Assembly: GCA_951406725.2 (NCBI GenBank)
Contig: OX597838.1
Location: forward strand, 27,590,001 to 27,654,000
DNA: 64,000 nucleotides
Source of the DNA: Octopus vulgaris
Lineage: Eukaryota
Direction: 5' to 3'
In this document: piece by piece, positions 20,087-44,953 of the stretch
Layout of the letters: each line of letters starts with the position of its first letter
Position numbering within the stretch: the first letter of the stretch is position 1
Program-made: the position numbers and the translations under genes
The notes under the pieces: generated by a model
What the model saw: only the letters and a program-made list of their open reading frames with translations
The model's database searches: none
Told to the model about the DNA's origin: nothing

Positions 20087-20117
<31 letters not shown>

Positions 20118-20190: not shown

Positions 20191-20372
20191 AAGTCGAAGA
20201 CCTGTGGGTTTAGACAGGTCTTGATAAATATATTCCCTCTGGATTGTTCGAGATCAGATCATAATAATAAAAAAAAATTGTCACATGTAGAATTCAAATA
20301 GTTTGCCAGCTATGTATATACTTCCATAAGTCTGTATGTGTGTATATATATATATATATACACACACATAAG

Positions 20373-20410
<38 letters not shown>

Positions 20411-20442
20411 CACACACACACAGTCTATATATATATATGTAT

Positions 20443-20775
20443 AGAAAAAATAAGAAGGCTAACAGCAGGCTGTTTCACCTCATACCGAAGGAATTAGAAA
20501 TGGCAGTCAAAGACCGTTTTTCCAATTTCTATAAGTGGAGAATCCAAAAACGAAGGCCCTTACGGCTCACATACACAAAACCGGAGTGGCAAATATACGA
20601 AATCAATCACTTACCGTTCGTATATTTGCCACTCCGGTTTTGTGTATGTGAGCCGTAAGGGCCTTCGTTTTTGGATTCTCCACTTATAGAAATTGGAAAA
20701 ACGGTCTTTGACTGCCATTTCTAATTCCTTCGGTATGAGGTGAAACAGCCTGCTGTTAGCCTTCTTATTTTTTCT
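20443..20775. repeat. Perfect 159-bp inverted repeat, 15-nt spacer (probable Penelope-like inverted pLTR; element extends to about 20904)
   Basis: Arms 20443-20601 and 20617-20775 are exact reverse complements on base-by-base comparison; embedded in (TA)n. Confidence 0.9.
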
Positions 20776-21020
20776 TTACTATATACTGAACCTTACAAAG
20801 GTCTTGACAATTAATTTGTCGTATTTACATACCGAAATTTACCGGTAAATAATTGTTGGTTACATGATAAACCACAGGAAAATTATTTACCATTTTTATT
20901 GAATTATATATATGTATATATATATATTTACATACATATATGTCTATGTGTGTGTGTGTATATATATACATACACACACATATGTCTAAGTATAACTATA
21001 TATACATATATGTATATATA

Positions 21021-21210
21021 TCATCGTCAACATCGTTTAACGTCCATTTTCCATGCTAGCATGGGTTGGACGGTTCGACCAGGGTCTGGGGAGCCAGGGG
21101 GCTGCACCAGGCCCCAGTCTGATCTGGCAGTGTTTCTACAGCTGGATGCCCTTCCTAACGCCAACAACTCCATGAGTGTAGTGGGTGCTTTTTACGTGCC
21201 ACCGGCACGG
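21021..21210 (-). mobile_element. RTE LINE 3' UTR fragment
   Basis: Reverse complement of 2420-2605. Confidence 0.75.
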
Positions 21211-21214
21211 ACGC

Positions 21215-21259
<45 letters not shown>

Positions 21260-21307
21260 AGTCTATATATATCTGTGTGTGTATATATATATCTATATGA
21301 GTGTATG

Positions 21308-21383
<76 letters not shown>

Positions 21384-21733
21384 AATGTCTATATATATAG
21401 ACAGAGAGCGAGAGAGATGATTTCTGTTAAAATTGCATCTGACGTAATGTGTGGGTATATACAATTAACGCTCAAGTTGATTTACCACCTAATATTTATC
21501 TCTCACTGGTTAGAGCACTTTTTTTTTGTTGATCCTACCTATAACGGAGCAGTAAACTATATACGTATGTGTATATTTATTATTCTTAAGCAAGAATATT
21601 ATTGACTGTGACTTCAAAGAATAATAAATTGTTTTTGGAATAATAAATTTATACTCTACGAAAGTATAGAGTAACCCATTAGATTAATGTAAAATAGGTT
21701 TTATTATAACTAAATATAAGGAACAAAACATAC

Positions 21734-21778
<45 letters not shown>

Positions 21779-21846
21779 TACATACATACATACATACGTA
21801 TATATATATAAATACATACATACATATATATACATGTATATATATG

Positions 21847-21880
<34 letters not shown>

Positions 21881-22077
21881 CATACATACATATATATACA
21901 TGTATATATATGCACACACACACATATATACATATATATACATACATACATATATATATGCATGCATATATATACACACACACATACGTATATGTACACA
22001 CATACAGCAGTGAATCCTATAAAGAAAATACCACAGGGTGTCCCTCTGTCCCTATCCCCATTTCTTCACATTACAGT

Positions 22078-22147
<70 letters not shown>

Positions 22148-22836
22148 ATAAATATACACTCATGCACGCATGGTGCTTAATAAATGTAGATAGTTGAACG
22201 GATGGATATATAGAGTGAGTGAAATATATATATGTGTATATTTTTTATAAGGGCAACAAACTGATTCTCTGTATATTTTTTTCTTATTTTCTTTATCTCA
22301 AAAGTGAGATATCCATCTCTCACCTAAATAAGGTGCTGAGGGATTTAAAGGGCGGGGTGTTGGAAGAAGAAAGAAGAGATGGCAGCTTAATCAATCCAAG
22401 AAGGTGGGATTTGACTTCTGGAAATCTGTACTGAACCAGAAAATTTCAATTCCAACATTAATCATGGCCTGCTGCATCCACTCGCTCATCAATGAAATGG
22501 TTTATTAGAAAACATCCGTTCCTTATCTAAAAATAACCTTCAACCTTGAGGAGTACGCATATTATGTAGCATTATATGTGCTTCCTTTGGAGATGTGGCA
22601 ACACTTCCAGCATCATCAGCCAGCCACACCCACCCCTGCTGCTGCTGACACCACCCCGATGCCTTTCAGACTTCCCAAGACCTCTTTTGTGTGGTGTTGT
22701 TTTAACTTAATTTACCTGTTTCTTGAGAAGCTCATCTTCTTTTGAGATAATCACACCTGCATTCTCTCGAAACTAAACAAAAACACAGCAGCAAATGATG
22801 ATTCTTCTATTATTATTATAAAAATAAAAAGAATTA

Positions 22837-22869
<33 letters not shown>

Positions 22870-23421
22870 GAGTGAGAGAGCAGTGCATGCCTTCTAAGTG
22901 ACACAGGTACAAATATACGAAGCCCATTATACCCATCATGACTACCCGTGTGATAAGGGTACACCAGGCGCATGCATCACAACCATATGTGCACAACAAG
23001 GTGATCTCATATCAAGATAAACAGCACATGACCTTGCAGGTGGGGCCCAGTTAGAATTTTCTTCAGGTTGAGTAGCCTATCCCACTCAAAAGGTTCCTGA
23101 ATAAGGGTTGTTTAAGGATGTTGAGCGAAACACCTATGTTTCCAGAGGTGAATTATCCGAACCCCAAAGAATTCCTCTCAACACATGGCTATGATGTTCC
23201 CCCACTACTTCTACTTGTCATCAGAGATGCACATATCGTCAGCCACTATGGGTCATGCTCAACTGGTTATGGTCAAGCAATTGACAAGTAAATCTGTGGT
23301 ATTGAGCAGAATATTCACTGTAGCCCATCTTTTATACCAAGACAAAACATGTACATGATAGCACTTCCAATCAATTAAATTCAGAAGCCATGAGAGCCAA
23401 GGCGTGGTACTGCATCATGGC

Positions 23422-23422
<1 letters not shown>
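22870..23422. mobile_element. ~550-bp interspersed element inserted in (ATT)n
   Basis: Homologous end to end with 38411-38945; (ATT)n on both sides. Confidence 0.8.
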
Positions 23423-23468
<46 letters not shown>

Positions 23469-24015
23469 TCTTGGTATGTTTGAGATCCATGTCTACAGCG
23501 ATGAGAAGCAAAGTTGACCAAAATCAATACAAATAAAAAGCATAAGTAAGATTCTAGTGTTGCTATGAGGGGGGTGGGGTTGGTGTAAGTGTGTGGGGGG
23601 GGGACTTGGTGGTCAGTTTCAATCGACTGAAATGACCCACTCCCTCCACCTATAAAATTGACCATGCTTCTGGCTGGCTGAATAAATATAATTATAATAA
23701 TTTAATTGTATCATGGCAATAATATATGCACAAACACACATATTTAATTAGATAAAATAACAATTATATTAATGACATTTAGATTATAATTATATTATAT
23801 AATGAGTTTAGATATAATTGGGGGGTGGTTATTATTATTATTATTATTATTATTATCATTATTATCATTATTATTATTATTATTATTATGTGATGCCCAT
23901 CCCCACTTTCATTGTGTGTTTTCATCAGCATAATTGATGCCATACTGGAGCTCTGCCTTTGTGTCTATATTCTTTGTTCATCTCTAACAACTTACAATAA
24001 AGATTATTATTATCG

Positions 24016-24068
<53 letters not shown>

Positions 24069-25628
24069 GCAAAACATCTTTGTAACAAAGTAATTGAAAC
24101 CAGCAGGAAGTAACTTCCTATATTTTATTGAAAGCAAACCAATCAGATTCTATGTACCGATATGTTGCTTGTTACTAAACAATGGTGGCCAGCAGAACAA
24201 GACTGTTGTCTAGTGTTTAGTCTTGGCTCTGTATATACAGATTAAAACTCCAATAGTGCAGAGAGGCAATTTAGTTTTGCCTTTCATCTCATTCAAGACT
24301 GATAAAATAGCTACCAGCAGATAAATTTGATTTCTCCATACAATCTATTCCTTCAAAAAAATTAGATTTGTATCTCGTTGAGTCAGCGTCATTGTCATCG
24401 TCATCACTTCTGCATTGGCTTTTCCCATATTGTCATGGGTTGAAAGAGGCTTATTGAAGACGTGTTTGACAGCTGGATGATACCTGTACTTGTTTTTCTA
24501 AGCGAGACATTTTTATCCTGCTTGTCTTCACATACCAAATTCCTTTTAGTGTAACAAATAACAAATCATATTCCAAGACACAAAAACTCGTTACAAAGGT
24601 ATGCATCCATCCCGGGTAGAAAAGGTATGAAGATAATAGAGTAAATCATTTCTAATCAGTTGGTTGGCCTATACTTTTGAATGTAGTTTAAGATGTGTGC
24701 TAGACTGGCTCTGTGCTTAACAAGCTCACCATGCGACCAAGCGCTTTTGGGGTTTGGTCCCACTGCATGGCACCTTGGGTAAATATCTTCTACTATAGTC
24801 CTCAGCCAACCAATGTCATATGAGTGAATTTCGTAGATGGAAGCTGAGTGGGAATCCATTATATATATGTTTGAAGGTGGCGAGCTGACAGAAATGTTAG
24901 CACACCGGGTGGAATACTTAGCGGTTTTTCATCTGTCATTATGTTCTGAGTTCAAATTCCTCTGAGGTTGACTTTGCCTCTCATCCTTTTGAGGTTGATA
25001 AATTAAGTACCAGTCTGGTAGATTTGTATCTTGTTCCTTTGTAATGATTTGGATGCAGTTGCTAGATTTTTAACCCTTGAGCTATCTAGCACTGGCTATC
25101 ATCATCATCATCATCATCGTGTGCTTGCTTTCCATGGCCTAGATTGGACAAACCACTGGTTCAGTTCTTAATTTGGAGTTCCAGCTCTCCAATGCAAGTC
25201 AAAGCACCACATCCCACTTGTGTTTATTTTTGACACAGTTTTCTACACTTGGATGATCTTTCCCCCATAACAATTGCTTCTACAGGGTGTATTCTGTGCA
25301 TTATGTCATGGCAGCAGCATTAGAGAGGTCATCATGTTTTGATAACTAGGAACCGTCTCTTAAAACCCAAGACACTACCTTAACAGAAGATGCAACTGCA
25401 CACCATCATATTCACTACCAGACTCATTGAATTAATGTGTAAGTGGTCAAGTATTCCACAGACTCATAGCCTTAATGTATCTCTGAGGTAGAATCAACCT
25501 GACATGGTGTATGACCTGGCTGGAGTTTGAAATCAGAATGCATTTACAATTGATTTCTGTCTATCCACTTTCAGTCACAATCTAATTGGTTGACCCAGGG
25601 CTATAAAAAAAAAATTACACTTGCTTAA

Positions 25629-26057
25629 CCCTTTAGTGTTCAGATTATTCTATCAAACATAATGCTTATTGATTCACATTGATTTGAATTAATCATGCAT
25701 TATCTCATATCTTCAAGATGTTGATGGTGTAATTACTTAATGTAGAATAACATTGTTGGGTAGGTGTGAGAGCCTGGATCTGGTCAGTTTGAACATAAAA
25801 CAGATTAACTATTTTGGCCGGATATGGCTGGTTTAACCCTTTAGTGTTCAGATTACTCTGTTAAATGTAATACTTTTTCACTCAAATTGTTTTGAATTAA
25901 TCCTGGATCATCTTAAAGCTTTGAGGTTTCAATGATGTGATTACTTATTTTTAGAATGGCATTGTAGGTTAGGTGTGAGAGGCTAGATATCGCCAGTTTG
26001 AATATAAAACATGTGGAATATATTGGGCCGGATTTGGCCAGTTTAAACACTAAAGGG
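25629..26057. mobile_element. Two tandem/nested TTAA MITEs
   Basis: TTAACCCTTTAGTGTTCAGATTA twice (about 25625 and 25833) and terminal AACACTAAAGGGTTAA. Confidence 0.75.
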
Positions 26058-26837
26058 TTAAGCATGATCTTCTCACCAAAATTTATTCTGAGGTTCTTGC
26101 AGCAGCATGACCTTGTCCTAAATGCTTCCATCGACCAACAACAGATGATGTTAAAAAACAAGACAACATGGTGGTATGCTTCATATTTCGATAAAACGAA
26201 GGAGGGAGTGTGTGCGTGGTGGACAGGTTAGATGGATATTATATGCAGCGGATATGATATCAGCATGCACAATATACGGTGGAACTCAGCTCAGCTTAAC
26301 TCAGCTCCGCTCTGCACTGATGACGGGGGAATGAAACTATGAAACCACTCTCCTTCTACTGATAACAAGATAACAATGGTAAACACCTCATCAGCCAAAC
26401 CATTTATGACTCCCTTTCTCCTACACTCTCTCTCTCCTCCTATCAGACTACCCTATCCTTCTGCCGCTTTCCTTCCCCCTTTAATTTCTCCTTTTTAATA
26501 TTTCATTATAAAATATTTTACATTACATTATTTATTTCATTGTCTCTCACTGTTTATTTCTCTCTGATATTTAAATGGCATTTATACTACAGCGTTAAAT
26601 TAGCATTTTTTTTTTTTTCGGTCTAAATTTATGCCATGACAGAGTGTAGTATGTATTGTTATATCCTCTTTCCTAGTTAAACCTCACATACTACAGGAGA
26701 AAGTCGATAAAAGTTTCCTTGATAACTTGCCAGCAGTGATGGTCATATAATTGGAAGCAAACAATTAGATTCATCTTAATTATCTCCTAAACTTGTGCCC
26801 TGGATCCTACTTCCCCTTCTTTGTAAACTTTCTATGG

Positions 26838-26839
26838 GG

Positions 26840-26872
<33 letters not shown>

Positions 26873-26886
26873 AATATATATACATA

Positions 26887-26968
<82 letters not shown>

Positions 26969-27043
26969 CATATACATACATATATATATATATACATATA
27001 CATATATATATATATATATATATACATACATATATATATATAT

Positions 27044-27112
<69 letters not shown>
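26838..27112. repeat. Long compound (TA)n/(CA)n microsatellite; similar tracts at 21727-22003, 34418-34540, 45548-46060, 46353-46410 and 59580-60060
   Basis: Seen directly. Confidence 0.95.
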
Positions 27113-27113
<1 letters not shown>

Positions 27114-27467
27114 TTATGTGCGTCTCTCTGTTGTTTGATTATATAATAATAATATACATTGCATGTGTGTGATTTACAAGTGTGTGTAGATGTGTGTGTG
27201 TGTGTGCTGTGAGGATGTGTTGAGGGAGGTGCCTGGAAAAATTTAGAAAAGTATGCCAAATATCTCTAATTGCAATGATGATAATGTTGATCTATATTCG
27301 TTTACTTCTTCACCGGTTAGGCACATCTAAAATTAGAATTGGTGTCATAAACATCTATAGATTTGTGTATGCATGTGTGTGTGTGAGAGAGAAAGTGTGT
27401 GTGTTTATATATATATATGTATATATATATTCATATATAATATATATATATATTCATATATAATATA

Positions 27468-27885
27468 GGTGCAGGAGTGGATGTGTGGTAAGTAGCTTGC
27501 TTACCAACCACATGGCTCCAGGTTCAGTCCCACTGTGTGGCACCTTTGGCAAGTGTCTTCTACCATAGCATCAGGTCGACCAAAGCCTTGTGAGTTGATT
27601 TGGTAGACAGAAACTGGAAGAAGCTCGTCGTGTGTGTATGTGTGTATATATATGTGTGTGAGTGTGTATTTGTATGTGTGTGTATCTGTTTGTCTCCCCT
27701 CCATTGTTTTCCAACCGATGCTGGTGTGTTTATGTTCCTGTAACTTAGCAGTTTGGCAAAAGGGACTGATAGAATAAATAGTAGTCGCCTTAGAAAGAAT
27801 AAGTTCTGGGGTCGATTTCTTTGACTAACATGCTTTGAGGTGGTGCTCCAGCATAGCCTCAGTCAAATGACTAAAACAAGTAAAG
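27468..27885 (+). mobile_element. SINE family A (older)
   Basis: Diverged full-length copy. Confidence 0.85.
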
Positions 27886-29379
27886 CAATACAGCTATATA
27901 CATGCACATGTGTGTGTGCGTGCGTGCATGTGTGTGTGTGTGTGTGTGTGTAGTTGCTAAAGATTGTGTAGTTTGTTCGTGGTTTGTATGTTTTCACAGC
28001 AAGATTAAATACATGTTTGTTAAACATATCATCTTTGACTTGTGTGTATATATTTATTCATAACCCCACTGTGAGACTTATGGAGTTATAAAGTCTGGGC
28101 ACGTGTGCATGTGTGTATGTGTGCAATTGCGCGCATGTATATGTGTATGTAAAATGACTACTTCTTGGCCGAGAGTGGTGTCTGCATCAAGTTATAAATG
28201 AGACTCCTCCAGTAATTTATTGAAATGTCAAAATATTTATTTAAACAAAAAAAAACATACACACACACACAAACACAACCCCCTCCCTTATGAGATAGAA
28301 AATAAATTTTGAAATAATTTTTCTCTATAAGAAATAGACACTTTAAGAAAATAGAATCCAATGGATGCTTGTTTTTGGATTTTTTTTTTTTTCTTTGCTA
28401 TTTAGTCCCAGATCTTGTCTGACTGGTCAGGCATTATGATTAAAGACATTCCAACCCTAACCATCCTGCCTTTTCTCTTTCTCTCTCTCTCTCTCTCTCT
28501 CCACATTGTGTATGTAGGACTACATTATTCTAGTGTGTCTTTCCTTCAGGCTGCTTTACCCTAGGTGTATCTTGACAGAGCAAAATTGTCATCAAAGATA
28601 TCCCTACCATGATCACACACACACACACACACGCACACACACACACAGAGTCAACAGATCAGATCTAGAAGTTCTTGGCATGGAAAACGGTTAGTAGTGC
28701 TCAAATGATTCAACCTTTGAGCTGATATGGAGACAATTATGCAGATAAACAAATTAAATATAACAGCTTGGCTTTTAAAGTAACCCCACTGATGTTGGTG
28801 CTATGGTAAAAGGAACACAGTACACTCTGCAAAGGGTTTTGGTGACCAAGGAGAGACAACATTAGGTGAAGAGTATTCTTTTGTCTTGTTGAGGACCTGA
28901 TAACCTCTATTGTGGTGCTGCCTTGATAAAACATCTCTCGGACTCTTCATAAATTGGTTGATGATAGGAAGGGCGTCCATCCATTGAAATCAATCCGAAA
29001 GTGAAAAGAATGAGTGAAATATGGTTCTCCAAGTTGTCTAGGTGGGCAGTAATTCTGAATAGTAACTGACTGTGGCCATGACAACCAAATTCATGTCAGC
29101 ATGGAAATGGACATAAAATGGTGATGGTGATTTTACAAGACCGTTACACTCTGATTTCCTTTGGTTTTGCTCTTAACTCTTGCTGGTAATACTCATACAA
29201 TCTCACTCTGTACTGTAGACCAGGTTATGGAATCCTTTTACAAGAAGCTGGCCGTGTGAAACGCAGCTCATTACTTCTGTTTGAGGATGCCATTCAGGAA
29301 GTCCTGCTGGCCTGTTATTGCCCACCACCTCAGATTGTCCACCAACATTCCACTGTCGGACTGAAGTCTATGCATAGAA

Positions 29380-30075
29380 TGACACGTTACACTACAGCCC
29401 CACATATAGTCACACTAATCTATTCCTCTACATATAATCACAACTGTACACTGCAGTACTCCTCATGCAGTCACACAACACAGTGTACTCCTCCACTTAC
29501 AGTCACACTTGACTGTTGTCTCCACATAGTCACATACTACATGGTACCCCTCCACTTACAATCACACTTCACTGTAGTCTCCACATAGTCACATACTACA
29601 TGGTACCCCTCCACTTACAGTCACACTTCACTGTAGTCTCCACTTACAGTCACACTTCACTGTAGTCTCCGCATAGTCACATACTACATGGTACACCTCC
29701 ACTTACAGTCACACTTCACTGTAGTCTCCACATAGTCACATACTACATGGTACCCCTCCACTTACAGTCACACTTCACTGTAGTCTCCACATAGTCACAT
29801 ACTACATGGTACCCCTCCACTTACAGTCACACTTCACTGTAGTCTCCACATAGTCGCATACTACAATGGTACCCCTCCACATACAGTCACACACTACACT
29901 CTATCCTCCACATATAGTTGCACACTACACTATATTCCTCCATGTACAGTCACACTCTACACTTCGCTCTGCAATGCAGTCACACACCTCACTGTACCCT
30001 CCACATAGTCACACACTAGTGTATCCCCCCCCCACATACAATCACTAGACTTTACTCCTCCACACAGAGTCACTC
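29380..30075. repeat. Minisatellite with 59-bp higher-order unit (30+29-bp subunits)
   Basis: CTCCACATAGTCACATACTACATGGTACCC + CTCCACTTACAGTCACACTTCACTGTAGT; homogeneous core about 29490-29890 with degenerate edges. Confidence 0.9.
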
Positions 30076-30924
30076 TCTCCACCCTCTGACTCTATACACA
30101 CACAAAAACATTGGATTTATCAGATTGAAAATTACCTTTTGTCAACCGAGTCATTGTTGCTCGGAGATGTTTGTCGAAATTATCTTGATCCTAAATGTCA
30201 ATATTAAATACCGGGACCTCGACGCAGCTTGCTTGTTCGTTAACAAACGATGTTGATTGATCACATTTTGCTCAATCAATAAAATCTGTACAGTCAGCAA
30301 TGGATTGATTTGCTATCAGTAATCAACCTTTTACAAAATAAATACACATCACTGTTCTGCTCATTTAAAACAAAATTATCTTGGACTGTCTTTACTTCTT
30401 CCTTCTTTTCTTCCTTCTTTTCTCTGAATTTGTCAACATTTTCCTTTTCTTCTTTATGCTTTGGTTTTATTTTTCATTGTCTTTCTTACATACAAAGAAT
30501 AGAGAAACGAATATAGTTTCTTGTTTTTTTTTTTTTGTTTTTTTTTTATTATTTATATCCCAAATAATAAGAATTGGATTCTTGCAGTTTCAATCTCATC
30601 ATTAACATGTTTAAAGTTAATCAGAAATAATTACATGGTGAGGCAAGAAAACAGTATTAATGAAAGACAACTCTGGGAATGCGTCGACGTTATTCTGAAC
30701 ACCTCAGCAAAACACAGCATTTGCTGTACTTACATAAAGTACTGATGACAACGAATAAAATTTTTTTAAAATTTTAATGTTTAATATTTGGTTTAGAAGT
30801 ATAAGTAATAAGATTGTTAGTTGTTGCAACAGTAGTTCCCAGTCTGGGGTCTGCAGACCCCTGGTGGTTTGCAAAGGTAGTACTGGGGGTCCATGAACTA
30901 AATAAAAAATTTCATATATATATA

Positions 30925-31319
30925 GGTGCAAGAGTGGCTGTGTGGTAAGTAGCTTGCTTACCAACCACATGGTTCCAGGTTCAGTCCCACTGCGTGGCAA
31001 CTTGGGCAAATGTCTTCTACTATAGCCTCGGGCCGACCAAAGCCTTGTGAGTGGATTTGGTAGATGGAAACTGAAAGAAGCCTGTCGTATATATGTATAT
31101 ATATGTGCGTGTATGTTTGTGTGTCTGTGTTTGTCCCCCTAGCATTGCTTGACAACCGATGCTGGTGTGTTTACATCGCCGTAACTTAGCGGTTCAGCAA
31201 AAGCGACCGATAGAATAAGTACTGGGCTTACAAAGAATAAGTCCCGGGGTCGATTTGCTCAACTAAAAGCAGTGCTCCAGCATGGCCGCAGTCAAATGAC
31301 TGAAACAAGTAAAAGAGTA
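30925..31319 (+). mobile_element. SINE family A
   Basis: Full-length copy. Confidence 0.9.
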
Positions 31320-31629
31320 TATACACACACACACATACACACATATATATGAGTTTGGAGGGATATATTATCTGGGCAGATACCCTGTTAGCTCTCAGTT
31401 AGGTTCCAGATGCCGGCTAACCACAACGGTCAGTATCCAGTGCCTGTGTTTACAATGTTTACCTCAGCCAGTTTGCTTCGAAGAAGATCAAATGGATTCT
31501 GGCGAAACTGCATTGACAATGTTGCAAGGTTGCATCTACAACAATGTGCAATCGCTGCAGTGGAAGCACATGTAGGTCATTGCAATATGCTGTATATAAC
31601 TATAAAATAAATACCCTGGATGTACAAAT

Positions 31630-32162
31630 TTCCATGCTTCTATTTGATCAGTCCACTTATGCATACCTTTCCTTCTTGGGACACAAAACTCTACTTGTGA
31701 AGACCTGTTGAGGCATGTGAGAATCAGAATCAAAATCGAAATCTATCAACATCAATGGAAATTGTAGCTGTGATACAAGTGCCAAGGGCACGTAAGAGAA
31801 CCATCCGAACGTGGCCGTTGCCAGCGCCGCCCCAACTGGCCTCTGTGCCGGTGGCACGTAAAAAGCACCATCCAGTCGTGGCCGTTGCCAGTCTCGCCTG
31901 GCCTCCGTGCCGGTGGCACGTAAAAACCATCAGCTGATCGTTGCCATTGCCAGCCTCATCTGGCACCTGTGTCAGTGGCACGTAATAAGTCCCCACTACA
32001 CTCACGGAGTGGTTGGCGTTAGGAAGGGCATCCAGCCGTAGAAACATTGCCAGATCAGACTGGGCCTGGTGCAGCCTTCTGGCTTCCCAGACCCCAGTTG
32101 AACCGTCCAACCCATGCTAGCATGGAAAGCGGACGCTAAATGACGATGATGATGATGATGAT
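31630..32162 (+). mobile_element. RTE LINE 3' UTR with internal GTGCCGGTGGCACGTAAAAAGCACC repeats and (GAT)n tail; further copies at about 33460-33748 (-), 39330-39672 (+), 47170-47527 (+) and 56850-57090 (-)
   Basis: Matches 2355-2605, which follows an RTE-like ORF end. Confidence 0.75.
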
Positions 32163-33087
32163 AGATATATGGATTTTTGCATGTCCACAAGCTTCCGCAC
32201 AGATTCTGTTACCAAATTCTTAACCTAGGACGACTATAGAAGACACTTGCCCTCAGCGCTGTCCATTAGGACTGAACTCAACATACTGTGGTTACCAAAT
32301 GAGCTTCTTAACTACACAGCCATGCCTGTGCCTATGGGGTGGTTATGAGGATTCTTTTCCATTCTTTTCTTCTTCTTTTTGTTTTCCATTTTTCATCTTC
32401 TTGACAACCTGTATGGCGTAGTTGGGCTAAAGCGTTGTTGGTTGTGATGAGAGCTTGAACCAATACAAACACAGAGCAGATAGAGATACTGTAAACACGA
32501 GGAGGTCAATAGCCTGAAAAAAAAATGATAATCTTAATAACAACTCATCTACAACATTTTGACATTTAATCAATCATTAAGCTTTGTTTTCATCTAAAAT
32601 ATATCACCTTATCAAATATTTTCATCTCTCGATAAATTCTAAACTTAAGTACTTAATTTCACCAGCTTCCAGTGTATAACTGATACACCAGAGGGCAGAA
32701 GGTGATCTTACAGGCAAACTAAAACAAAATGCTCTTGAGGGATGGGACCTTTATGAAGTCGTTTGATTTGTTAGAAATAGCAACCATGTCCCACAAGAAC
32801 AGGGTAGTACTGGCTTGAGAAGAAAGGGAGTGTGTATATCCATGGTAATGTAGTTTTTGATAGACTATACTTTCAGAAAAAATAAAGGAGGAGACCGGAT
32901 GGTCTCATGGTCACACCTTCAACACCTTTGATTGGAGGCTGCTCAACTAAACCAGGCTTGTTGGCTAAGCAGCAAATCTCTCCATTGTTGATGTCATCAT
33001 CAGCTTACATCCACTTTACATGTGAGCATGGATTGGAAATAGCATTATGGAACTACAGTGGAAAAATCTATATCTGTCTATATATAT

Positions 33088-33334
33088 GTAGGTCCCGGGT
33101 TGAGTCGGGGTTAACCACAGTAAATAAGGTACTCAATACATAGCAGAGTAAATTAATTTATTATGTAGAAGGAGCTTCTACAGGACTAGAACTGTTTCAT
33201 TCAAAAGAAATCATCAGGAAGCTAGTAGACAAGAGTTGTTTTGGCATAAAACAACTCTTGTCTACTAGCTTCCTGATGATTTCTTTTGAATGAAACAGTT
33301 CTAGTCCTGTAGAAGCTCCTTCTACATAATAAAT
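33088..33334. mobile_element. Penelope-like fold-back element: perfect 87-bp inverted repeat, 16-bp TSD
   Basis: Arms 33156-33242 and 33248-33334 with loop GGCAT; ATCTGTCTATATATAT at 33072-33087 and 33333-33348. Confidence 0.8.
33267..33317 (+). ncRNA. Type I hammerhead ribozyme fold with canonical core (mirror copy 33173-33223 on -)
   Basis: AGCUUC-CUGAUGA-U-UUC uuuu GAA-U-GAA-ACAG uucuaguc CUGU-A|GAAGCU; GUA cleavage triplet. Confidence 0.82.
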
Positions 33335-33335
33335 C

Positions 33336-33373
<38 letters not shown>

Positions 33374-33743
33374 TGCATGTGTGTGTATGTATATGCATAT
33401 ATATATATACATGAGTGTATGTATATGCATGCATATGTGTGTATGTATATGCATATATATCATCATCGTTTAACGTCCGTTTTCCGTGCTTGCACGGGTT
33501 GGACGGTCCGACCGGGGTCTGGGAAGCCAGGAGGCTGCACCAGGAGGCTCCAGTCTGATCTGGCAGTGTTTCTACAGCTGGATGCCCTTCCTAATGCCAA
33601 CCACTCTGTGAGTGTAGTGGGTGCTTTTAATGTGCCACCGACACAGGTGCCAGGGGAGGCTGGCAGCGGCCACGATCAGTTGGTGCTTTTTACGTGCCAC
33701 CAGCACAGAAGCCAGTGAAGGCGGTGCTGGCATCGGCCACATT

Positions 33744-33778
<35 letters not shown>

Positions 33779-34432
33779 TGGGAGCTAAACATAGAGGAGA
33801 CAAACAAGAATAGACAAAGGGATTAAGTCGATTACATCGATCCGAGTGCATAACTGGTACTTATTTAATCGACCCCCGAAAGGATGAAAGGCAAAGTCGA
33901 CCTCAGCAGAATTTGAACTCAGAACGTAACGGCAGACGAAAGACCGCTAAGCACTTTGCTTATTGGACTGTGGCCATGTTGGGGCACCACCTTGACGGTT
34001 TTGTTAATAAATTGATCCCAGTACTTACTTTAAGCCTGATACTTATTCTATTTGGAGTCTTTTGCTGAACTGTTAAGTTACAGGGACATAAACAAACCGA
34101 CAGCAGTTGTCAAGAAGTTGTTGGAGACGTACATATATATATTTTACAAACTCACACACACGTGTAAAACACATCCTGACTACACTGTAAAGTGGTTGGC
34201 ATTTGGAAGGCCCTTCCAGTTGTAAAAACCATGCCAAAACTGACCTTGCCTGTGTTGGTGCTACATAAAAAGCACTCGGTCCACTCTGCAGAGAGGTTGG
34301 TGTTAGGAAGGGCATCCAGCTGTAAAAACCATGACAAATCAGACTCAGTAACCTGGGGTAGTAACCAGCTCCTGTCAAACTGTCCAACCCATGGAAGGCA
34401 GGCATTAAATGATGATTATATATATATATATG

Positions 34433-34516
<84 letters not shown>

Positions 34517-34871
34517 TACACACACACACACACACACATATAGTCAGCCTATGCAGTCTCCCAATGTAGAATTTCTGAGACACTTTCTGTCCCAATTGTC
34601 CACTTGAGAACTGATGTTCACAAGTTCAAATCCAAGCTAATGGCCACTTACACTCACTTAACCTTCCCTTGTACTTCTGGAAAAATCTGAAAAAGCCCCC
34701 CCCCTTGCCCCCCCTACCAACACCACATATTTTCTTGTCCTCCACAGATTAACGAATTACAAAAACAAACAAAAAGAAATTAAGCACCAGTAAACGATAT
34801 TAATTAGTATAATGATAATGACATTATCATTTCAGCTGGTATTTTTATTTTTGATTTTCTTTGTGTATGTA

Positions 34872-34910
<39 letters not shown>

Positions 34911-37339
34911 ATAAACATGCGTACACAGACATTTACACACTTGTAGGAACAGACAGACTTAGCAGTCTACAGGTATATTTATCCCATTTAAAAGTAAGCC
35001 TTCTGTCTCTTTAATAATATATATTTATGATTGTGTTAGTGTGTGTGTATGTGTGTGCATATATGTCACACACCCGTACATGTGCACACATAAATTCCGA
35101 ACATTCTTCACTAATTGCATGTTCTCTTAAAATAACCTGACAAAAAACCTCCTCCCTCACACACAATCTGTCGTTCGCTCAGTCTCTCTCTCCCTCTCTT
35201 TCTCTCTCTACCTATCTCTTTCGCTGTCCCCGGTCTCCCACCTCCCAGTCTGCACTCTTCTTCCTCCTGCCCCTCTCTCTCTTCCCTCTCTCAGTCTGTC
35301 ATTACACACTGATTACAACAATCACCGCCAAGATGTCTTATCTTATTTTCATTTTTATTTCCACTGAGGTAAAAATTAGACATTGTACCCAACACTTCCA
35401 TATTTAGCATCCCCCAGTTTTTCCTCAGTACATGCAGACATACATATATGCCATCTTCCTGTTCCCAATCTCCATCACCACCTCCTATCATTGTTGTTCT
35501 GTAAACTTTCTTCAATTGTGATGTTCTTCCAGCCTTATACAATTGTATACAATATCATCATCATCATCGCTATCATCTCCATCATGTTCATCATCACATT
35601 CACTTTTCCATGTTCTTATGGTTCAGATGGAATTAGTTGTGGCAGTTTCCCTACAGCTGGATACCTTTCCTGTTGCCAACCCTCCCTTGTCTCCAAACAA
35701 AACAATATCTTCCCATGACCAGCATTTCGCCCAGCGTTGTAATGTGTCTGCCAGCTCATCGCTTTGCTGGGATCCCATACAAGGAGAGTTCTACATCCTT
35801 GGTCACTTACACCTCTTATAAACCGGGTTAAGCTCTGGCATTATGTGTCCTAGGGCTCAAGACAGACCACCAACATATGCAATTACGTTAATTGTAAAAA
35901 TTACTAACTGTAGACTAAAAGTCTGAAACATAGAACAATGTAATAATGACTTGTAGGGACACCATATTTCATTATGCAACCACGATATACAACAAAGTAT
36001 ATTTAATACTTTATAAGCCACTACTGTGTTAGCAGTGCCATTAAATTACTTGTTACGGTTATCTCTACAGATTTCCAACAGAAATTACAGCCTACACTGA
36101 TTTGTTACATTAGGCGTATTCAGATATGAAACGTTGCAACAAATCAGTATTGGCTATAATTTCTATTGAGAATAACCTTAACAAGAACAATGTAACTACA
36201 AGATGGAGTCTCACAAAACTTTACTCATGGCTAAAAAAAAAAAAAAAATACATGATTATTAGTTGGTTACAACATAATACATCTAACTGTGAATTAATGT
36301 TTAGCGGTGATATTCTTAACCCCTTTAATACCAACCTATCTGAGATCACCTCTGGTTCTATGATACAAGTTTCCTGGTTTTAAAAGTGGTTCTAAATTAA
36401 AACCATCCATCAAAATTTCATGTTAATTTGTGTTCTAAAAGCATTATGGCAATGTTATTTCTCTGATTTTTCCGGTATTTTTTGAAATTTATTTAAACAG
36501 AGGCAGTGCGTTTTTAACAGAAATATGGTAATGAGAGGTTCAAGAGAATCTCTACAAATGAACAGTCGAGCAGTATTTTGTCTTTATTGCACTTAGAAGT
36601 GGAAATTCAAATTCACAGAAATATGAAGAAGGAAATGGCAGAAGACCTGTCATTCCTAATTCTGTTAGTATTGGAAAATTCTAATTTCACATTCAGCCAC
36701 GCAAAAAAAAAAAAAAAAGAAAGAAAGAAAGAAAGAGAGAGCAAAGTTCCAGTTTGTTCATGGAATTTCATGTTTGACACTCAAATTACATGACAGCTCT
36801 GCAAATGCTTGTGGAACCATCAAAGAAGGCTGCTTCACCTGTTCCATTGCTACAATATGGGTGATGGAACCAATCTCATTTGATATTGTCTGTCTCTGGT
36901 AGGAAATATTTGCACCTGTTTTTTAAACTCTGTGTGTGTATAAACAATATATGCATGTGTGTGTCTGTGTGTCCACCACCACTTGACAGCCAGTATTTCA
37001 TTATGCCCCTGTAACTTAGCAGTTCAGCAAAAAAGAGATTGACAGAATAAGTACCAGACTTTAAAAAAAAAAAAAGGTCAGCTTAAGTACAGGGGCCAAT
37101 CAAGGTGGTGCCCCAGCATGGCCACAGTCCAATGACTGAAACAAGTAAATCATAAAAGATAAAGACAAATAAAGGATGAAGCTGGTGTTTGGAACAGGAA
37201 TTATCATGAAATTTTGATGGAAGATTTTCATTTTGATTGTTTGAAATCATGTGATTTATATCACAGAACCAGGAATGGTCTCAGGCAGGATTCTTATCAA
37301 AAGGGTTAATAATTTGCTCAAATTGGTTGGTTATTCCTA

Positions 37340-37715
37340 ATTTCTGCAATTCTTTTACATTGGTTCCGTCTTGCTGTTGGCTACTGCAGTTCTATGCAAA
37401 TTGTTTACAGTTCCTTAGTTTTTGTAATTAAGTACAAGGCTTTGTCGGATGTTCTCAGGGATTTTTTCCTGAACAAGCATATGTTTTTCAAAAGATGTTT
37501 CTTTGAAATTCCAAAGGTTTCAGTAATCTCTGCAAAACCAAAAGATTTGCCTGCACAGGAAGCATGTCTGTTATTGAGATGTCTTGTAAGTTTATTAGGC
37601 TTCATATTTTCATTTCGGCAAATAATCATCAGAGAATTCAGCAGTCTGAAAGTTGCTTTTCGTATCTAAGAGCAAAAGTAGATCCCCATTAAAAAAGGGG
37701 AAAAACAGGTTCTCT
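37340..37715 (-). pseudogene. Decayed hAT (Buster/Charlie-like) transposase fragment
   Basis: NENMKPNKLTRHLNNRH resembles the NESMKPSKLKRHLxxKH BED-finger motif, followed by SLRTSDKALYLITKTKE (ALxASYxVAxxIAKxK-like). Confidence 0.7.
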
Positions 37716-38410
37716 GATTCTCCTTCTTTTCGCTCTGTGTGTGTGTGTGTGTGTGTGTGTGCACTTCAAATTCTTCAACTTCTTAGAGTTCCACTTGCTT
37801 TCCAATTCCTGATGCTGTTATCCAGGTTTCACAGAATCTGTTATTTCCTCTTCGATGGATGCAAGAGAGGGAGAGAGAGACAAGCATAATGCATGAAAAG
37901 ATGTAGTTTGGCTCATTTGGGGACGGGGTCAGAGGCGTGACTTAACCATTTAACAGTTAGACTGGTTACATCAGGCCTAAATATTCTACCTGCTTTGTGT
38001 CCAAAACCAGCCAGGTGCTGCCTCTCACACCTACTCTATCTACAATGTCATTCTAAAATTAAACAATCTCATCATTGAAATCTTGAAGCTGCAAAACAAT
38101 GCATGATTAATTCAAAACAATATCAATAAATAAGCATTTGACTGACATAAGATGATTATTATTATTATTATTATTAAGGCGGCAAGCTGGGAGAATCGTT
38201 AGCATGCTGGACAAAATGTTTAGTGGCATTTTGTCCGTCTTGACATTCTGAGTTCAAACCCCACTGAGGTCGACTTTGCCTTTCATCCTTTCAGGGTCGA
38301 TAATGTAAGTACCAGTGAAACTCTGAGGTTGATGTAATCAACTAGTCTCCTCTCCACAAATTTCAGGCCTTGTACCATTAGTAGAAAGGATTATTATTAT
38401 TATTATTATT

Positions 38411-38943
38411 GAGTGAGAGAGTAGTGCATGCCATCAAAGTGACATTGGGGTAAAATATACGAAGCCCAGTATACCCATCATGACTACCCGTCTGATAAGG
38501 GTACACTAGGCACATGCATCACAACCATATGTGCGTGACATGGTGATCTCATATCAAGATAAACAGTGTATGACCTTGCAGGTGGGGCCCAGTTAGAATT
38601 TTCTTCTGGTCAAGTAGTCAATCCTGGTCAAAAGGTCCCTGAATAAGGATGTTGAACGAACCACCTATGTTTCCAGAGGTGAATTATCCAAACCCCCAAG
38701 AATCCCTCTCAACACATGGCCATGATGCTCCCCCACTACTTCTGCTTGTGATCAGAGATGTCAGCCACTAAGGGACATGCTCAATTGGTTAAGGTCAAAC
38801 AACTGACAAGCAAATCTGTGGTATTGAGCAGAATATTTGCTGTAGCCCATCTTTTATACAAAGACAAAACAATGTACATGATAACACTTCCAATCAGTTA
38901 AGATCAGAAACCATGAGAGCCACTGCCTTGTTCTGCATCAGGG

Positions 38944-38945
<2 letters not shown>
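38411..38945. mobile_element. Second copy of the (ATT)n-embedded ~550-bp element
   Basis: Homologous to 22870-23422, same orientation. Confidence 0.8.
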
Positions 38946-38997
<52 letters not shown>

Positions 38998-40395
38998 GGT
39001 GACATGCTGGTAGAATTGTTAGCATGCTGGACAAAATTTTTAGTGGCATTTTGTCCATCTTGACATTCCGTGTTCAAATTCTACAAAGGTTGTTATTATT
39101 ATTATGACAATGAGCTGGCTGAATTGTTAGCATACCAGGCAAAATGCTTATGGCATTTTGTGTGTTTTTATGTTCTAAGTTCAATTTCTACCTTGATCAA
39201 CTTTGCTTTTCATTCTTTCGGGGTTGATAAAATAAGTACTACTTGAAAACTGGGGTTGATGTAATCAACTAGTCCCCTACCCCAAAATTTCAGGCCTTGT
39301 GCCTATAGTAAAAGAGATTATTATTATTGTGCCGGTGGCAAATTGTAGTTGTGATACCTGTGCCAGTGGCACGTAAGAAGCACCATCCAAACGTGGCCGA
39401 TGCCAAGGCCACTTTCACTGGCTTCTGTGCCGGCGGCACGTAAAAAGCACCAATCTGATCGTGGCTGTTCCCAGCCTCCCCTGGCACCTGTGCCGGTGGC
39501 ACATAAAAAGCACCCACTACACATGGAGTGGTTGGCGTTAGGAAGGGCATCCAGCTGTAGAAACACTGCCAGATCAGACTGGAGCCTGGTGCAGCCTCCT
39601 GGTTTCCAGACCCCGGCCGAACCATCCAACCCATGCTAGCACGGAAAACGGACGTTAAACGATGATGATGATTATGGTAAAATTGGTAGTGTGTCTGCCA
39701 ATACACCTTGCAGTGTTTGGTTATGGATCTCTGTATTCTGAGTTCAAATCCTTCTTAAGTCACCTTTCCTTTGTGACCTTCTGTAGTTGATAAAGTACCA
39801 GAGAGCAAAGTGTATTAAACTGCTTTGCTCAAGGAAACAGTACAGCATTGGGTACATGCAGGAATTGAACCTGAAAAGGTATTGTCATGAGCCAAACACC
39901 TTAACCATAAGGCCACACACTTTTACTTTTGTAAACACATAGGAAGACAAAGGTGTGACTGAGTGGTTTAGAAGTTCACTTTTCAACCATGTGGTTTCAG
40001 GTTCAATCCCACTGTGCAGCACTTTGGACACGAATCTTCTGCTATAGCCTCAAGCTGACCAAAATCTTGTAAGTGGCTTTGGTAGATAGAAACTGAAAGA
40101 AGCCTGTGTGTGTTATCATATGGTGGAATGTAAATGCATTCTTGTACAAGAGATGTTGTTCATTTCTAGTTTTCTGTAACATCACATGATAGCTATAAAT
40201 GAGTGTCACTGGCATACAAGCAGTGTCCTTCGCTTCAAGTCTTCTGTGGAAAAAAGCATGTTTGGCCTTGCTTGGAAACAAGTCAGGGTTAATGAGAAAA
40301 TGGGTATCCAATCATAGAAAATCTGCCTTAACAATTCTGTCTGACCCATGGAAGCATAGAAAAATGGACATTAGATGATGATGATGATGACGACA

Positions 40396-40432
<37 letters not shown>

Positions 40433-41515
40433 TCAGTGGGTATGTGGTCACAAAAGAGTTTAATATTAATTATCAATTATCTCTCTCCCTCTCTCCACAT
40501 GAAGGTTTTGATTCCTAGACTGGGTGATGCACTGTGGTCTTGAGCAAAGCACTTCATTTCACATTGGTCCAGTTCACTCAGCTGGCAAAAAAAAAATGAG
40601 TAACCCTGCAAAAGACTAACCTCCCATGCAGAAGTGGAATAATTCAGTGGCCCCAGATGAGAAAGACGAAATATACTAAAACTGTATCGTTATTAAGAAT
40701 ACCAGAAATGAAATCTCGTTACAAGTAATGTCTCGTTAAAAGATATCGTGATAGGAATTTTTTTTTCATTTTTGGTATCTTACTCTTATTTTTCGAATAT
40801 TTTATTTTCTTAGAAAAATAAAACCAACAAAATTAGCAAAATTTTTGTTTGTATATTTTTCTTTTTTTGCTAGATGGTGGAGGTGAGGCATTAAATCTTT
40901 TTCTTCGTCATTTATTATAGATCTCACTATACATATCTTAACGAATTCCTTCACCTGTACATATATATATATATATATATTTATATAAATATAAATAAAG
41001 TACATTATTTTTACTCTTCTCTGCAGGACACATTTTCATTATTGGTTTTTGACAGCTGTCATTAAAAGCTATTTGAAACCCCAATCCCATCTCCTGTCTC
41101 ATTCGCTCTCTTCCCCACCCCCACCCCATGCAAAATCACCGTTAAATATTTGAAGTAAAACAAATAAATGGACAAAAGATATGAAAAATATTAATAGATT
41201 AAAAGCTGGAAAACCATAAATTCAAAAAATTTATTTCAGTTTTAGATTTGTTTTATTTGTCTATAATGTATGTGTGTGTGTGTGTGTGTGTGTAGGCATG
41301 GCAGTTTAGTCACATATTTAAATGTATTCATGTGGATATATATATATATATATATATCAAATGATGTGTGTGTTTATATATTTAGTCTAGTTGTGGTTTA
41401 CCCTTGGCCAGGTCTTGTACATGTTAACCTTCTTCAGCACTCTCAAAACAACCCGGAAGGACCCATGTGCTACTGGAATTATGGCCATCCATGATGAAAG
41501 ACTTGGGATTTATAC

Positions 41516-41750
41516 TGCGGCGAGCTGGCAGAATCGTTAGCGTGCCGGGCGAAATCCTTAGCGGTATATCGTCTGCCGCTACGTTCTGAGTTCAAATTCC
41601 GCCGAGGTCGACTTTACCTTTCATCCTTTCGGGGTCAATAAATTAAGTACCAGTTACGCACTGGGGCCGATATAATCGACTTAATCCGTTTGTCTGTCCT
41701 TTGTTTGTCCCCTCTGTGTTTAGCCCCTTGTGGGTAGTAAAGAAATAGGT
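41516..41750 (+). mobile_element. SINE family B
   Basis: Young full-length copy; others at 33781-33958 (-), 44463-44690 (-) and 47565-47795 (+). Confidence 0.88.
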
Positions 41751-41988
41751 TTCCCATTGCCTTCACCAGGCATGAGGGATTTCAGCTCAGAATATAGGGA
41801 GTCAGAAGATATACCATAAAGCATATTTGCTGAGGCCCCAAACAGTTCTGGTACACTCGCACCCACGAGGGCAATGTGAAATGAAGTGTTTTGCCCAAGA
41901 ACACAATGTGCTACCTGATCCAGGAATCGAACCCATGGTCTGTCGATCATGAGTGCAACACCTTAACTACTAGGTCACATGACTTCAC

Positions 41989-42027
<39 letters not shown>

Positions 42028-42100
42028 GTTTTTTTTTAAAGTTATTATCATGCGACATACATACGTAGTAATCATGTAGTAAATATACATGCTCAAATAC

Positions 42101-42135
<35 letters not shown>

Positions 42136-42917
42136 GTCCACACAATTTCACTTACGTGCTAATTATATGGCACATACTAATTTTAGTGTGTGTGTATATA
42201 TATATAGGTATAGATATATGCTAATTTTAGTATACATACACAAACACTAATTAAATACACACACCCACAAACTCATATTAATCATAAATATGTATATATA
42301 TATACGCATACAGTATGTGTACATACAAGAAGCATATAATGTGTGTGTCTATGTGTGTATGTCTTTACATACCATGTGTCAAGAAAATGTTCCCCATAGT
42401 AAATCAACTTTGTCACAAGTAAGAGTCACCTGACAGAATTAATCACAGAACCAATTACCAGGAGTAATTAGAAATGTCCAACTGTTGTCTGCGTATTTGT
42501 TTGTAGTGAATGTATGTATGTATGTGTGCGGGTATGGATGGGAGTGTATGTGGTGTGTCGATCCATTTCGCACCACTTTCTGAAAAGTTTATGTAATAAA
42601 TAAATAAAAGTTACCATACAAAATTCAATTACCTTAAAAGGTAAAATGAAAAACAGCAATCGAAAATATTTACTTGGACCAGACTTTTCACATCCTCCTC
42701 AACCACCACCATCATCACAATCATCATCATCATTATCATCCTTCTCTTCCTTATCATCAGTATTCATCAACCCTATCATCATCATCATCATCATTACTAT
42801 GATTGTCGCCTTCAACTTTATCACAATCATCTCCATCACAATAATCACCTGCCATCATTATTATCCCAGACACCATCAACACCATCACTATTATTATTAT
42901 CATTATTATTATTATTA

Positions 42918-44088
42918 AAGGTAGTGAGCTGGCAGAATTGTTAGTACCCCAGGTAAAATGCTTAGCAGCATTTTAGCTGTCTTTACGTTCCGAGTTCAAA
43001 TTCTGCTGAGGTCAACTTCGCCTTTCATCCTTTTGGGGGTTGATAAATTAAGTACCAGTTGAGCACTTGGGTCGATGTAATCAACTAGTCCCCTCCGGCC
43101 AAATTTCAGCCTTATTCCTTCAGTTGAAAGGATTATTATTATTATTATCATTATTATTATTATTATTATTGTTATTATTATTATTATATAAGGTAGTGAG
43201 CTGGCAGAGTCGTTAGCACGCTGAGTAAAATTCTTAGCATTTTGTCTGAGTTCAAATTCTGCTGAGGTCGACTTTGCCTTTCATCCTTTCGGGGTCAGTA
43301 ACTTAAGTACCAGTCAAGTAGTGGGATTGATGTGGTCAACTTTCCCCATGCTTCCACCCACCCCCTCAAAAATTTCAGGGTTATTATTATTGGCATAATC
43401 GTTAGTGTGCTGGGCTAAATGCTTAGCGGTATTTCATCTACTGCTACATTCTGAGTCCGAATTTCCACCGAGGTCAACTTTGCCTTTCATCTTTTCAGGG
43501 TTGATTAAGTAAGCACCAGTTATGCACTGGGGTCAATGTAATCGACTTAATCCCTTCCCCTACATTTCAGGCCTTGTGCCTACAGTAGAAAGTATTATTA
43601 TTATTATTATTATCATTATTAAGGTGGCAAGCTAACAGAGTCATTGGCACAGCAGGCAAAATGCTTAGCAGCATTTTGTCTGCCTTTACATCCTGAGTTC
43701 AAATTCTACTGAGGTCAACTTTGACTTACATCATTTCGGGGTCAATGAAATGAGTACCCATTGATCACTGCAGTTGATGTAATCAACTTACTCCCTCCCC
43801 CGACATTACTGGCATTGTGCTAAAATTTGAAACCACTATTATTATTATTATCATCATTATTATTATTATTATTATTAAGGCGTCAAGCTGATAGAATCTT
43901 AACCATGCTGGATAAAATGTTTAGAGATATTTCATCTGTCTTTACATTCTCAGTTCAAATTCTGCCATGGTCAACTTTTTGGGGGTCAGTAAAATAAGTA
44001 CCAGTTGAACAGTGAGATTGATGTAATTGACTACTCCCCACCCCCACCCCCTAAATTTCCAGATTTGTGCCTATAGTAGTAGAAAGAG
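42918..44088 (+). mobile_element. Cluster of five family B-related SINEs with an alternative 3' tail, separated by (ATT)n
   Basis: Heads at about 42918, 43191, 43392, 43621 and 43878; tails ...AAATTTCAGGCCTTGTGCCTA.AGTAGAAAG.ATTATT. Confidence 0.8.
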
Positions 44089-44877
44089 CCGCCAAACTGG
44101 CTCATGCCAGTGCCACCTAACTCGCTGCTGTGCCGGTTGCACGTAAAAGGCATCCAGCCTGTAGAAACCTTGCCAGATCAGACTGGAGCCTGGTGCAGCC
44201 TCCTGGCTTGCCAGTCCCCAGTCAAACCATCCAACTTATGCCAGCATGGAAAGCAGACATTAAATAATGATAATGATGATGATGCAGCAAGCTGGCAGAA
44301 ACATTAGCCCATCTGACAAAATGCTTAGAGGCACTTGTTCCGTCTCCTAGACTAACCCTCTTTCTGAGTAGTTGGGTTTTGGCCTCTCCATTGGCAAAAA
44401 ATGGTCAGGAATCACTGCTCTTCAGTAAGAAATCTGTTCTTCTCTGTTTGTTTACTGTTTCTTATTTCTTTTTTGCCCACAAGGGGCTAAACATACAGGG
44501 GACAAACAAGGACAGACAAAGGGTTTAACTTGATTACATTGAATCCAGTGTGTAACTGGTACTTAATTTATCGACCCCAAAAGGATGAAAGGCAAAGTCG
44601 ACCTCGGCGGAATTTGAACTCAAACATAGTGGCAAACAAAATACCGCTAAGCATTTCACCCGGCATGCTAACGTTTCTGCCAGCTCCGCCTTTTTTTCTT
44701 TTTCTTTTTTTTACTTCTCGCTTATTTTATTAGGCTTTATCTTTTCTCTCGACCAGACAGGGCCCCGGAACAATGGGATCCTGGGGCCGCCATTCGAGGT
44801 GTCGATGTTCACTGAGTCCTGCTATTCATATCAGTTCATGCAGATAGCCGTGCTCTTCATCAACAGACGAGCCCAGT

Positions 44878-44953
44878 GATCCCCCATCCAGGGATTTGAT
44901 CCCCCGTCCAGGGATTTGATCCCCCATCCAGGGATTTGATTCCTTATCCAGGG
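44878..44953. repeat. 20-bp tandem repeat x~4
   Basis: GATCCCCCATCCAGGGATTT units. Confidence 0.9.

Follow-up and report, generated by a model that had tools for sequence, protein, structure and literature searches.

Penelope-like elements (PLEs) of the Hydra clade are characterized by an RWK motif, a change of DKG to DKT, a CxCX5C linker, the lack of CCHH and (TA)n targets (PMC8557442), and RWR is present in the last ORF of File S4 of that paper. One-sided tails of PLEs have been reported (PMC8557442, PMC11167929), and the minimal hammerheads of metazoan PLEs are described as having low or dimer-dependent activity by Cervera and de la Pena 2014 (PMC4209133), where pairs located 100-700 bp apart on opposite strands were already noted. 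For the Poseidon PLE PAc, two-strand nicking, two internal RT starts and the use of uncleaved RNA were described in vitro (Frangieh et al. 2024, PMC11167929), while self-priming on an antisense template is favoured in PMC3846280 for the junctions of inverted pLTRs. Non-LTR retrozymes consist of head-to-tail tandem monomers with a hammerhead in each (bioRxiv 10.64898/2026.07.22.740005).

We analyzed a window of 64,000 nucleotides from Octopus vulgaris (GCA_951406725.2, contig OX597838.1), in which a preliminary description had reported a hammerhead on the sense strand of numb, masked by its own antisense copy and possibly acting as a conditional switch of intron cleavage. We regard it as very probable that a (TA)n run within a numb intron received a young insertion of a Penelope-like element carrying Hydra-clade motifs, made up of two 5'-truncated copies head-to-head, in which the hammerhead is predicted to be locked and is likely to do nothing for numb. 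The sequestration put forward earlier is retained in this interpretation and the switch is not; the retroelement origin had not been recognised.

Structure of the insertion

The features of the insertion are collected in Table 1. Sequence comparison bears out the 87-bp perfect hairpin with a 16-bp TSD: the arms are complementary at 87 of 87 positions around a 5-nt loop, and the two TSD copies are identical, without possible extension. Both arms are copies of the 3' pLTR of the element, one ending at +91 with the tail and the other at +23 without it (pLTR positions are counted from the predicted hammerhead cut). Along its 160 nt, the tail-bearing copy is 99.4% identical to longer elements at their 3' ends, RT/EN-bearing elements among them, and in full-length copies (L049-L055) the tail runs on into the 5' UTR before the ORF. 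The two copies meet head-to-head at a blunt junction (33247/33248), and the final 2 nt of the right arm overlap the right TSD copy. Thus, an inverted 5'-truncated copy at the 5' end, a one-sided tail and a TSD, i.e. the features of complex insertions of EN+ PLEs, are all found here. A C at +14 is present in both arms, in 0/142 sampled family copies and, among all loci retrieved, in L026 alone, which argues that the arms derive from one source.

Table 1. Coordinates of the features discussed in the text (positions in the window)
Feature	Position	Strand	Basis
Left 16-bp TSD copy, start of (TA)n run	33072..33087	+	= 33333-33348
Tail-bearing 5'-truncated 3' pLTR copy, -68 to +91 relative to cut	33088..33247	-	similarity to longer elements
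One-sided 68-nt tail	33088..33155	-	comparison with L049-L055
Left arm, 87-bp perfect inverted repeat	33156..33242	.	complementarity
Mirror hammerhead, antisense to numb	33173..33223	-	exact reverse complement of 33267-33317
5-nt loop = surplus 5' bases of minus-strand copy	33243..33247	.	L001 matches 1-160 and 6-92
Right arm: tail-less 5'-truncated copy, -63 to +23	33248..33334	+	pLTR match
Type I hammerhead, Hydra-clade form (CUGAUGAU...UGAAA), predicted cut after 33311	33267..33317	+	core layout, folding
Element-encoded 8-bp hairpin over cut site, competes with stems I and III	33308..33326	+	-7.2 kcal/mol
Right 16-bp TSD copy, continues into (TA)n	33333..33348	+	= 33072-33087
numb intron, about 31 kb, between two PTB-region coding exons; further internal exons possible	18505..49875	+	exon matches

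The parent element

A genome search with the insert yielded 761 candidates, the best 40 of which were scored; these include 11 other whole-hairpin loci, with different junctions, and many longer elements whose ends match over 160 bp. A 35-nt core occurs in 1,504 exact copies in the genome versus 0 for its reversed control, which excludes a chance origin, and the 29-nt end of the tail occurs in 1,855 exact copies, again with 0 for the reversed control. By eye, we counted 23 minus/plus pairs no more than 250 bp apart among the 100 core matches listed. Longer copies contain an ORF upstream of the 3' unit on the same strand. A genome search with an RT fragment produced 14,039 candidates, and most of the best 150, which were scored, show 90-97% identity. 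The open frames comprise 718 aa in L052 (L052:3010-5163) and 722 aa in L049, the former uniting in one ORF the RT motif YRDDG and the C-terminal GIY-YIG motifs LVY...YIG. An Atlas search with the ORF detected GIY-YIG and RVT_1 clusters at 0.96-0.97, behind unnamed clusters at 0.99; Pfam recognised neither RT nor GIY-YIG in the ORF, and PDB sequences contained no relevant match to it. As a separate observation, the full-length copies L050, L053, L054 and L055 have in common a frame of 506 aa, after which the reading shifts, at one identical C-rich spot, into the frame of the endonuclease, whereas L044, L049 and L052 read through; the common frameshift was either inherited within an amplified subfamily or is a homopolymer assembly error.

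RWR and DKT are found in L049 and L052-L055, the linker CxCX5C reads CNCPDKTTC or CNCHDKTTC, CCHH is absent with a single C between LVY and YIG, and CxxC and CxH flank the conserved E and N (CDLC..E..N..CMH). As judged by eye, a TA-rich run comes after the tail in nearly every one of 100 loci, and the hammerhead is located in the pLTR with the core layout of File S2 of PMC8557442. By these motifs, the parent is a Penelope-like element and a putative member of the Hydra clade. It shares with the clade as described in PMC8557442 (Hydra-1_Obim, Penelope-13_HM) the RWK/R, DKT, linker, absence of CCHH, C-terminal GIY-YIG and (TA)n targets, and also the hammerhead core ctgatgat...tgaa, which is frequent in File S2; the entry for Penelope-13_HM there moreover gives an inverted copy truncated at the 5' end and hammerheads on the two strands. 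On the other hand, Hydra-1_Obim has another hammerhead sequence, so the family in the window is not Hydra-1_Obim, and its ORF is clearly diverged (by eye).

The spacing from pLTR to pLTR is 5.1-5.3 kb in L053, L054 and L055 and 4.8 kb in L049. Whereas the clade is described as "generally <3 kb" with tails of 30-40 bp (PMC8557442), this family has a repeat unit of about 5.1-5.2 kb, which exceeds the typical length because of a long, microsatellite-rich 3' UTR, a tail of 68 nt and an 8-nt loop III, and most of its insertions are fold-back stubs of about 200 bp. In L031:2000-4300 and in L034 we observed a 3' UTR of >2 kb, largely (TA)/(TG) microsatellite with an internal repeat, which is unusual for a clade whose elements are given as <3 kb.

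Fold-back copies across the genome

We sampled the first 100 of the 1,855 tail loci, all on contig C1 (L087-L186). An adjacent inverted tail-less arm is present in 70/100 (82 were called initially and 12 dropped as (TA)n mis-alignments), and the layout seen in the window is therefore the usual product of the family. The inverted arms end at +14 to +27 in 70/70 of these loci; at least one whole hammerhead is kept in 43/70 and both are kept in 19/70. Junctions vary from locus to locus. TSDs of 15-17 bp were found in 4 loci with readable targets, two further calls (19 and 40 bp; six in all) having been set aside as nearly pure TA. Extrapolation from the tail count and the sampled fold-back share gives on the order of 1,300 similar hairpins genome-wide. 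The arrangement is reminiscent of the EN+ Penelope elements Pen2/Pen2a from Adineta (PMC3846280), for which head-to-head inverted pLTRs, a one-sided tail, a TSD, junction palindromes and a TATA-like box in the pLTR are described; the differences are the TSD of 15-17 bp here versus 8-10 bp there, and the insert, which here consists of two pLTR ends alone.

The hammerhead motif

CUGAUGA begins at 33273, GAAA begins at 33292, and the GUA predicted cut site is followed by stem I on its 3' side (6 bp, 33267-72/33312-17); stem II has 3 bp closed by a UUUU loop, and stem III has 4 bp with a quasi-palindromic 8-nt loop. All the hallmarks of a type I hammerhead (CUGANGA, GAAA, UH and three helices) are present, and sequence and folding both agree with the intact core, three stems, GUA cut after 33311 and quasi-palindromic stem III region reported earlier. 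The label "canonical" goes too far: positions 10.1-11.1 are U.U rather than G-C in 142/142 family copies, a replacement common among the Hydra-clade motifs in File S2 of PMC8557442, and no hammerhead family of Rfam matched here at the gathering score, nor was there a hammerhead among the 34 matches at E<=10, which include generic hairpins only below their own cut-offs. The core does lie on the sense strand of numb, but it is not strand-specific, as the minus strand has the same hammerhead (33173-33223) behind the same hairpin. Like the minimal hammerheads of metazoan PLEs (PMC4209133), it is a type I motif in the pLTR with a palindromic helix III, and it differs from them in the full 4-bp helix III, the short 3-bp helix II and the U.U in place of G10.1-C11.1. 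Two sense copies could dimerize through stem III (-12.8 kcal/mol), but the insertion supplies only one copy per strand.

In 142 copies chosen by tail or RT (columns -44 to -38 are blurred by junctions), the common variants are those at the free N7 (95 U, 46 A) and those in the loops of stems II and III, and no position of these two stems varies in more than 2 copies. This pattern suggests that the hammerhead fold is under selection at the level of the family, not at the numb locus. The folding figures given here and below describe secondary structure only and ignore tertiary contacts, proteins and co-transcriptional kinetics. For the lone 51-nt core P(active) is about 4e-2, within 0.3 kcal/mol of the active shape, which together with selection in the family indicates that the hammerhead probably cuts in some context. 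Owing to back-pairing of +7 to +15 across the cut site, P(active) of the lone arm falls from 4e-2 to about 1e-5 (37 C). Immediately 3' of the cut, in the window as in family copies, a conserved hairpin spans the cleavage site and is possibly a built-in off state of the element's ribozyme.

Genomic context and presence in other DNA

Solved Numb PTB domains match an exon at 49876-49955 on the + strand (E 1.5e-9), and NumbF is located further downstream on this strand. An exon-like frame with a donor site, located by means of Numb motifs, is found upstream, at about 18357-18504, and we take it to be a numb exon. With this frame upstream and the PTB exon downstream on the + strand, the insert is intronic, which supports its earlier assignment to the numb sense strand within an intron. 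Elsewhere in the same intron, 44743-44895 (-) contains a degenerate 5.8S rRNA fragment (67 bits), probably a pseudogene, beside a short 19-nt tandem repeat. On either side of the hairpin lies a copy of a common short interspersed repeat (31803-32167 and 33442-33748); the two are oppositely oriented and 82-87% complementary, and might pair into a longer duplex in the pre-mRNA of numb.

In DNA run X1, possibly the assembly source, a contig continues from the flank into the element. The flank contigs of X2, X4 and X8 cease to match at 33087, the end of the TSD, with 21, 21 and 42 letters left over, and these flanks also differ from the window by 7-15 letters. The stops in 3/4 DNA runs fit an empty allele, so the insertion may be absent from other individuals, and it looks young.

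Origin of the insertion and alternative explanations

In the twin-priming scheme that we propose, the GIY-YIG endonuclease of the element would have nicked both strands of the TA-rich target about 16 bp apart, and two reverse transcriptions would have begun at +91 and +23 of uncleaved element RNA, stopped early and been joined 5'-to-5'. The counterpart is Poseidon PAc in vitro (PMC11167929), where both strands are nicked and extended, two internal RT starts define the tail, matching the +23/+91 ends here, and the RNA substrate is uncleaved, in line with the lack of arm ends at the cut in our family. PAc belongs to another PLE clade, and its ORF starts inside the hammerhead, whereas the ORF here begins about 137 nt beyond the cut. 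Once transcribed in numb pre-mRNA, the two arms would pair as a duplex of 87 bp, a likely ADAR substrate like other cephalopod intronic repeats, that would be removed along with the intron.

The same origin would be compatible with a passive effect of the hairpin on numb RNA, by editing, small RNAs or slower splicing and without a ribozyme cut. The duplex is perfect over 87 bp, with a predicted fold of -171 kcal/mol for the whole insert, and PLE copies are described as yielding small RNAs in a rotifer (PMC3846280), but we consider such an effect unlikely, given that the two exons identified lie about 14.5 and 16.5 kb away and that similar hairpins number, by extrapolation, on the order of 1,300 across the genome.

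Much less probable is the conditional switch, in which ADAR editing or a helicase would free the sense hammerhead to cut numb pre-mRNA. Splicing across cut introns is known as "exon tethering". In favour of a switch are the intact core, its position on the numb sense strand and in an intron, the in vitro cleavage of one PLE hammerhead only with protein help (PMC11167929), and the editing of cephalopod intronic repeats, which is common in squid (PMC9068888) and makes editing of the hairpin likely, yet is no proof of function. Sequestration by the antisense copy is supported by predicted folding: in the whole insert the active fold is 84 kcal/mol uphill at 37 C, with P(active) about 1e-59, and 97 kcal/mol uphill at 20 C. 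The release by editing, however, finds no support in the predictions. At 20 C, with the 31 antisense A's treated as G, a gap of 77 kcal/mol remains, and even in the best case, with all 31 unpaired and none in the sense arm, 33 kcal/mol remains; moreover, 13 A's are inside the ribozyme itself and would, we expect, be edited too. Full unwinding, with the whole antisense arm unpaired, still leaves a gap of 9.8 kcal/mol (P about 5e-8, 20 C), with the cut site still covered by the 3' hairpin of the element itself. The antisense copy is indeed read first, as previously claimed, but this is no special arrangement, because either strand of any head-to-head insertion reads antisense and then hammerhead; correspondingly, the minus strand folds identically (-171 kcal/mol). 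The layout is thus symmetric and the default of a family that keeps whole hammerheads in most sampled fold-backs, and the flank contigs of 3/4 DNA runs stop exactly at the TSD end, all of which speaks against a switch. An intronic ribozyme or RNA switch conserved by the host would be fixed, kept at the orthologous site and of single or low copy; the core here is of high copy, and the contig ends suggest that other individuals may lack the insertion.

In MITEs or fold-back DNA transposons the inverted repeats are terminal, and a unit of fixed extent is amplified as a whole. The insert resembles them, and a tandem non-LTR retrozyme, in being short, inverted-repeat, high-copy and flanked by a TSD, and retrozymes share the type I hammerhead, but neither origin is at all plausible: the inverted repeat is not terminal, as there is a 68-nt one-sided tail, the junctions are locus-specific (different in the 11 other whole-hairpin matches among the best 40 of 761), the copies are head-to-head and not tandem, and RT-encoding elements carry the unit at their 3' end. 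Perfect palindromes can come from library or assembly errors, and no contig spans the whole insert, but a read folded back on itself is scarcely credible: the 16-bp TSD is clean, the presence of a tail on one side only recurs in 70 other loci, and short-read contigs from DNA runs X1 and X4 contain fold-back joints.

Arm ends and the start of the transcript

The 5' ends of the arms were compiled for the sampled loci (n=139, one inverted end, in L108, left out; ends within a locus are not independent). These genomic copies lack a cleavage footprint of the hammerhead: 0/139 ends fall at 0 to +2, and none of the loci retrieved has the junction that run-off at the cut would produce. The ends accumulate instead at -44, the first base of stem I (48/139), with 88/139 within -44 to -35 versus 5/139 within -54 to -45; per locus, the longer arm ends at -44 in 34/69. 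Three ends visibly extend past this edge (L173 twice, L108; by eye). In 12 loci the insert is a perfect palindrome centred on AGCT, so both arms score as -44. Only 4/139 ends lie beyond -57, and since the copy in the window reaches that far upstream, it was probably copied from the 3' pLTR. Subfamily divergence was rejected as the cause of the edge, as re-calling with 24 upstream variants moved 1/49 ends. A TATAAAT-like box, exact in 21/24, starts 29 nt before stem I in 22/24 distinct upstream variants and 30 or 31 nt before it in the other two; these variants were picked by an anchor beside the TATA-like box, and the family is young.

The edge at -44 suggests run-off of RT at the start of the uncleaved transcript. 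It could instead come from selection of the AGCT palindrome during joining; against this, the 4-mer palindromes at -46 and -10 are rarely used. Our reading of the edge, to which we give about an even chance, is that the transcript starts at the first base of stem I, RT from +23/+91 of the 5' pLTR copy runs off the uncleaved RNA, and two cDNAs join head-to-head, often through AGCT, so that the stubs record copying in vivo. Among the papers listed in our literature searches, none reports a -44 arm-end edge.

Implications

The hairpin in the window is a fold-back stub of an ordinary kind, from a Penelope-like family that has Hydra-clade motifs. For numb the insert is most likely without consequence, as one more intronic double-stranded repeat, and it serves as a warning that "caged hammerheads" are to be expected by the hundreds in such genomes. 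Retroelement biology gains in this family a useful system, young and of high copy number. If the run-off reading is true, hammerhead hairpins of about 200 bp would be the main product of the family, at on the order of a thousand loci, and cleaved RNA would not be the template. If the arm-end edge is the transcript start, it would lend in vivo support to initiation at internal sites of uncleaved RNA, and the formation of inverted pLTRs, which PMC8557442 lists as open, would have a testable explanation.
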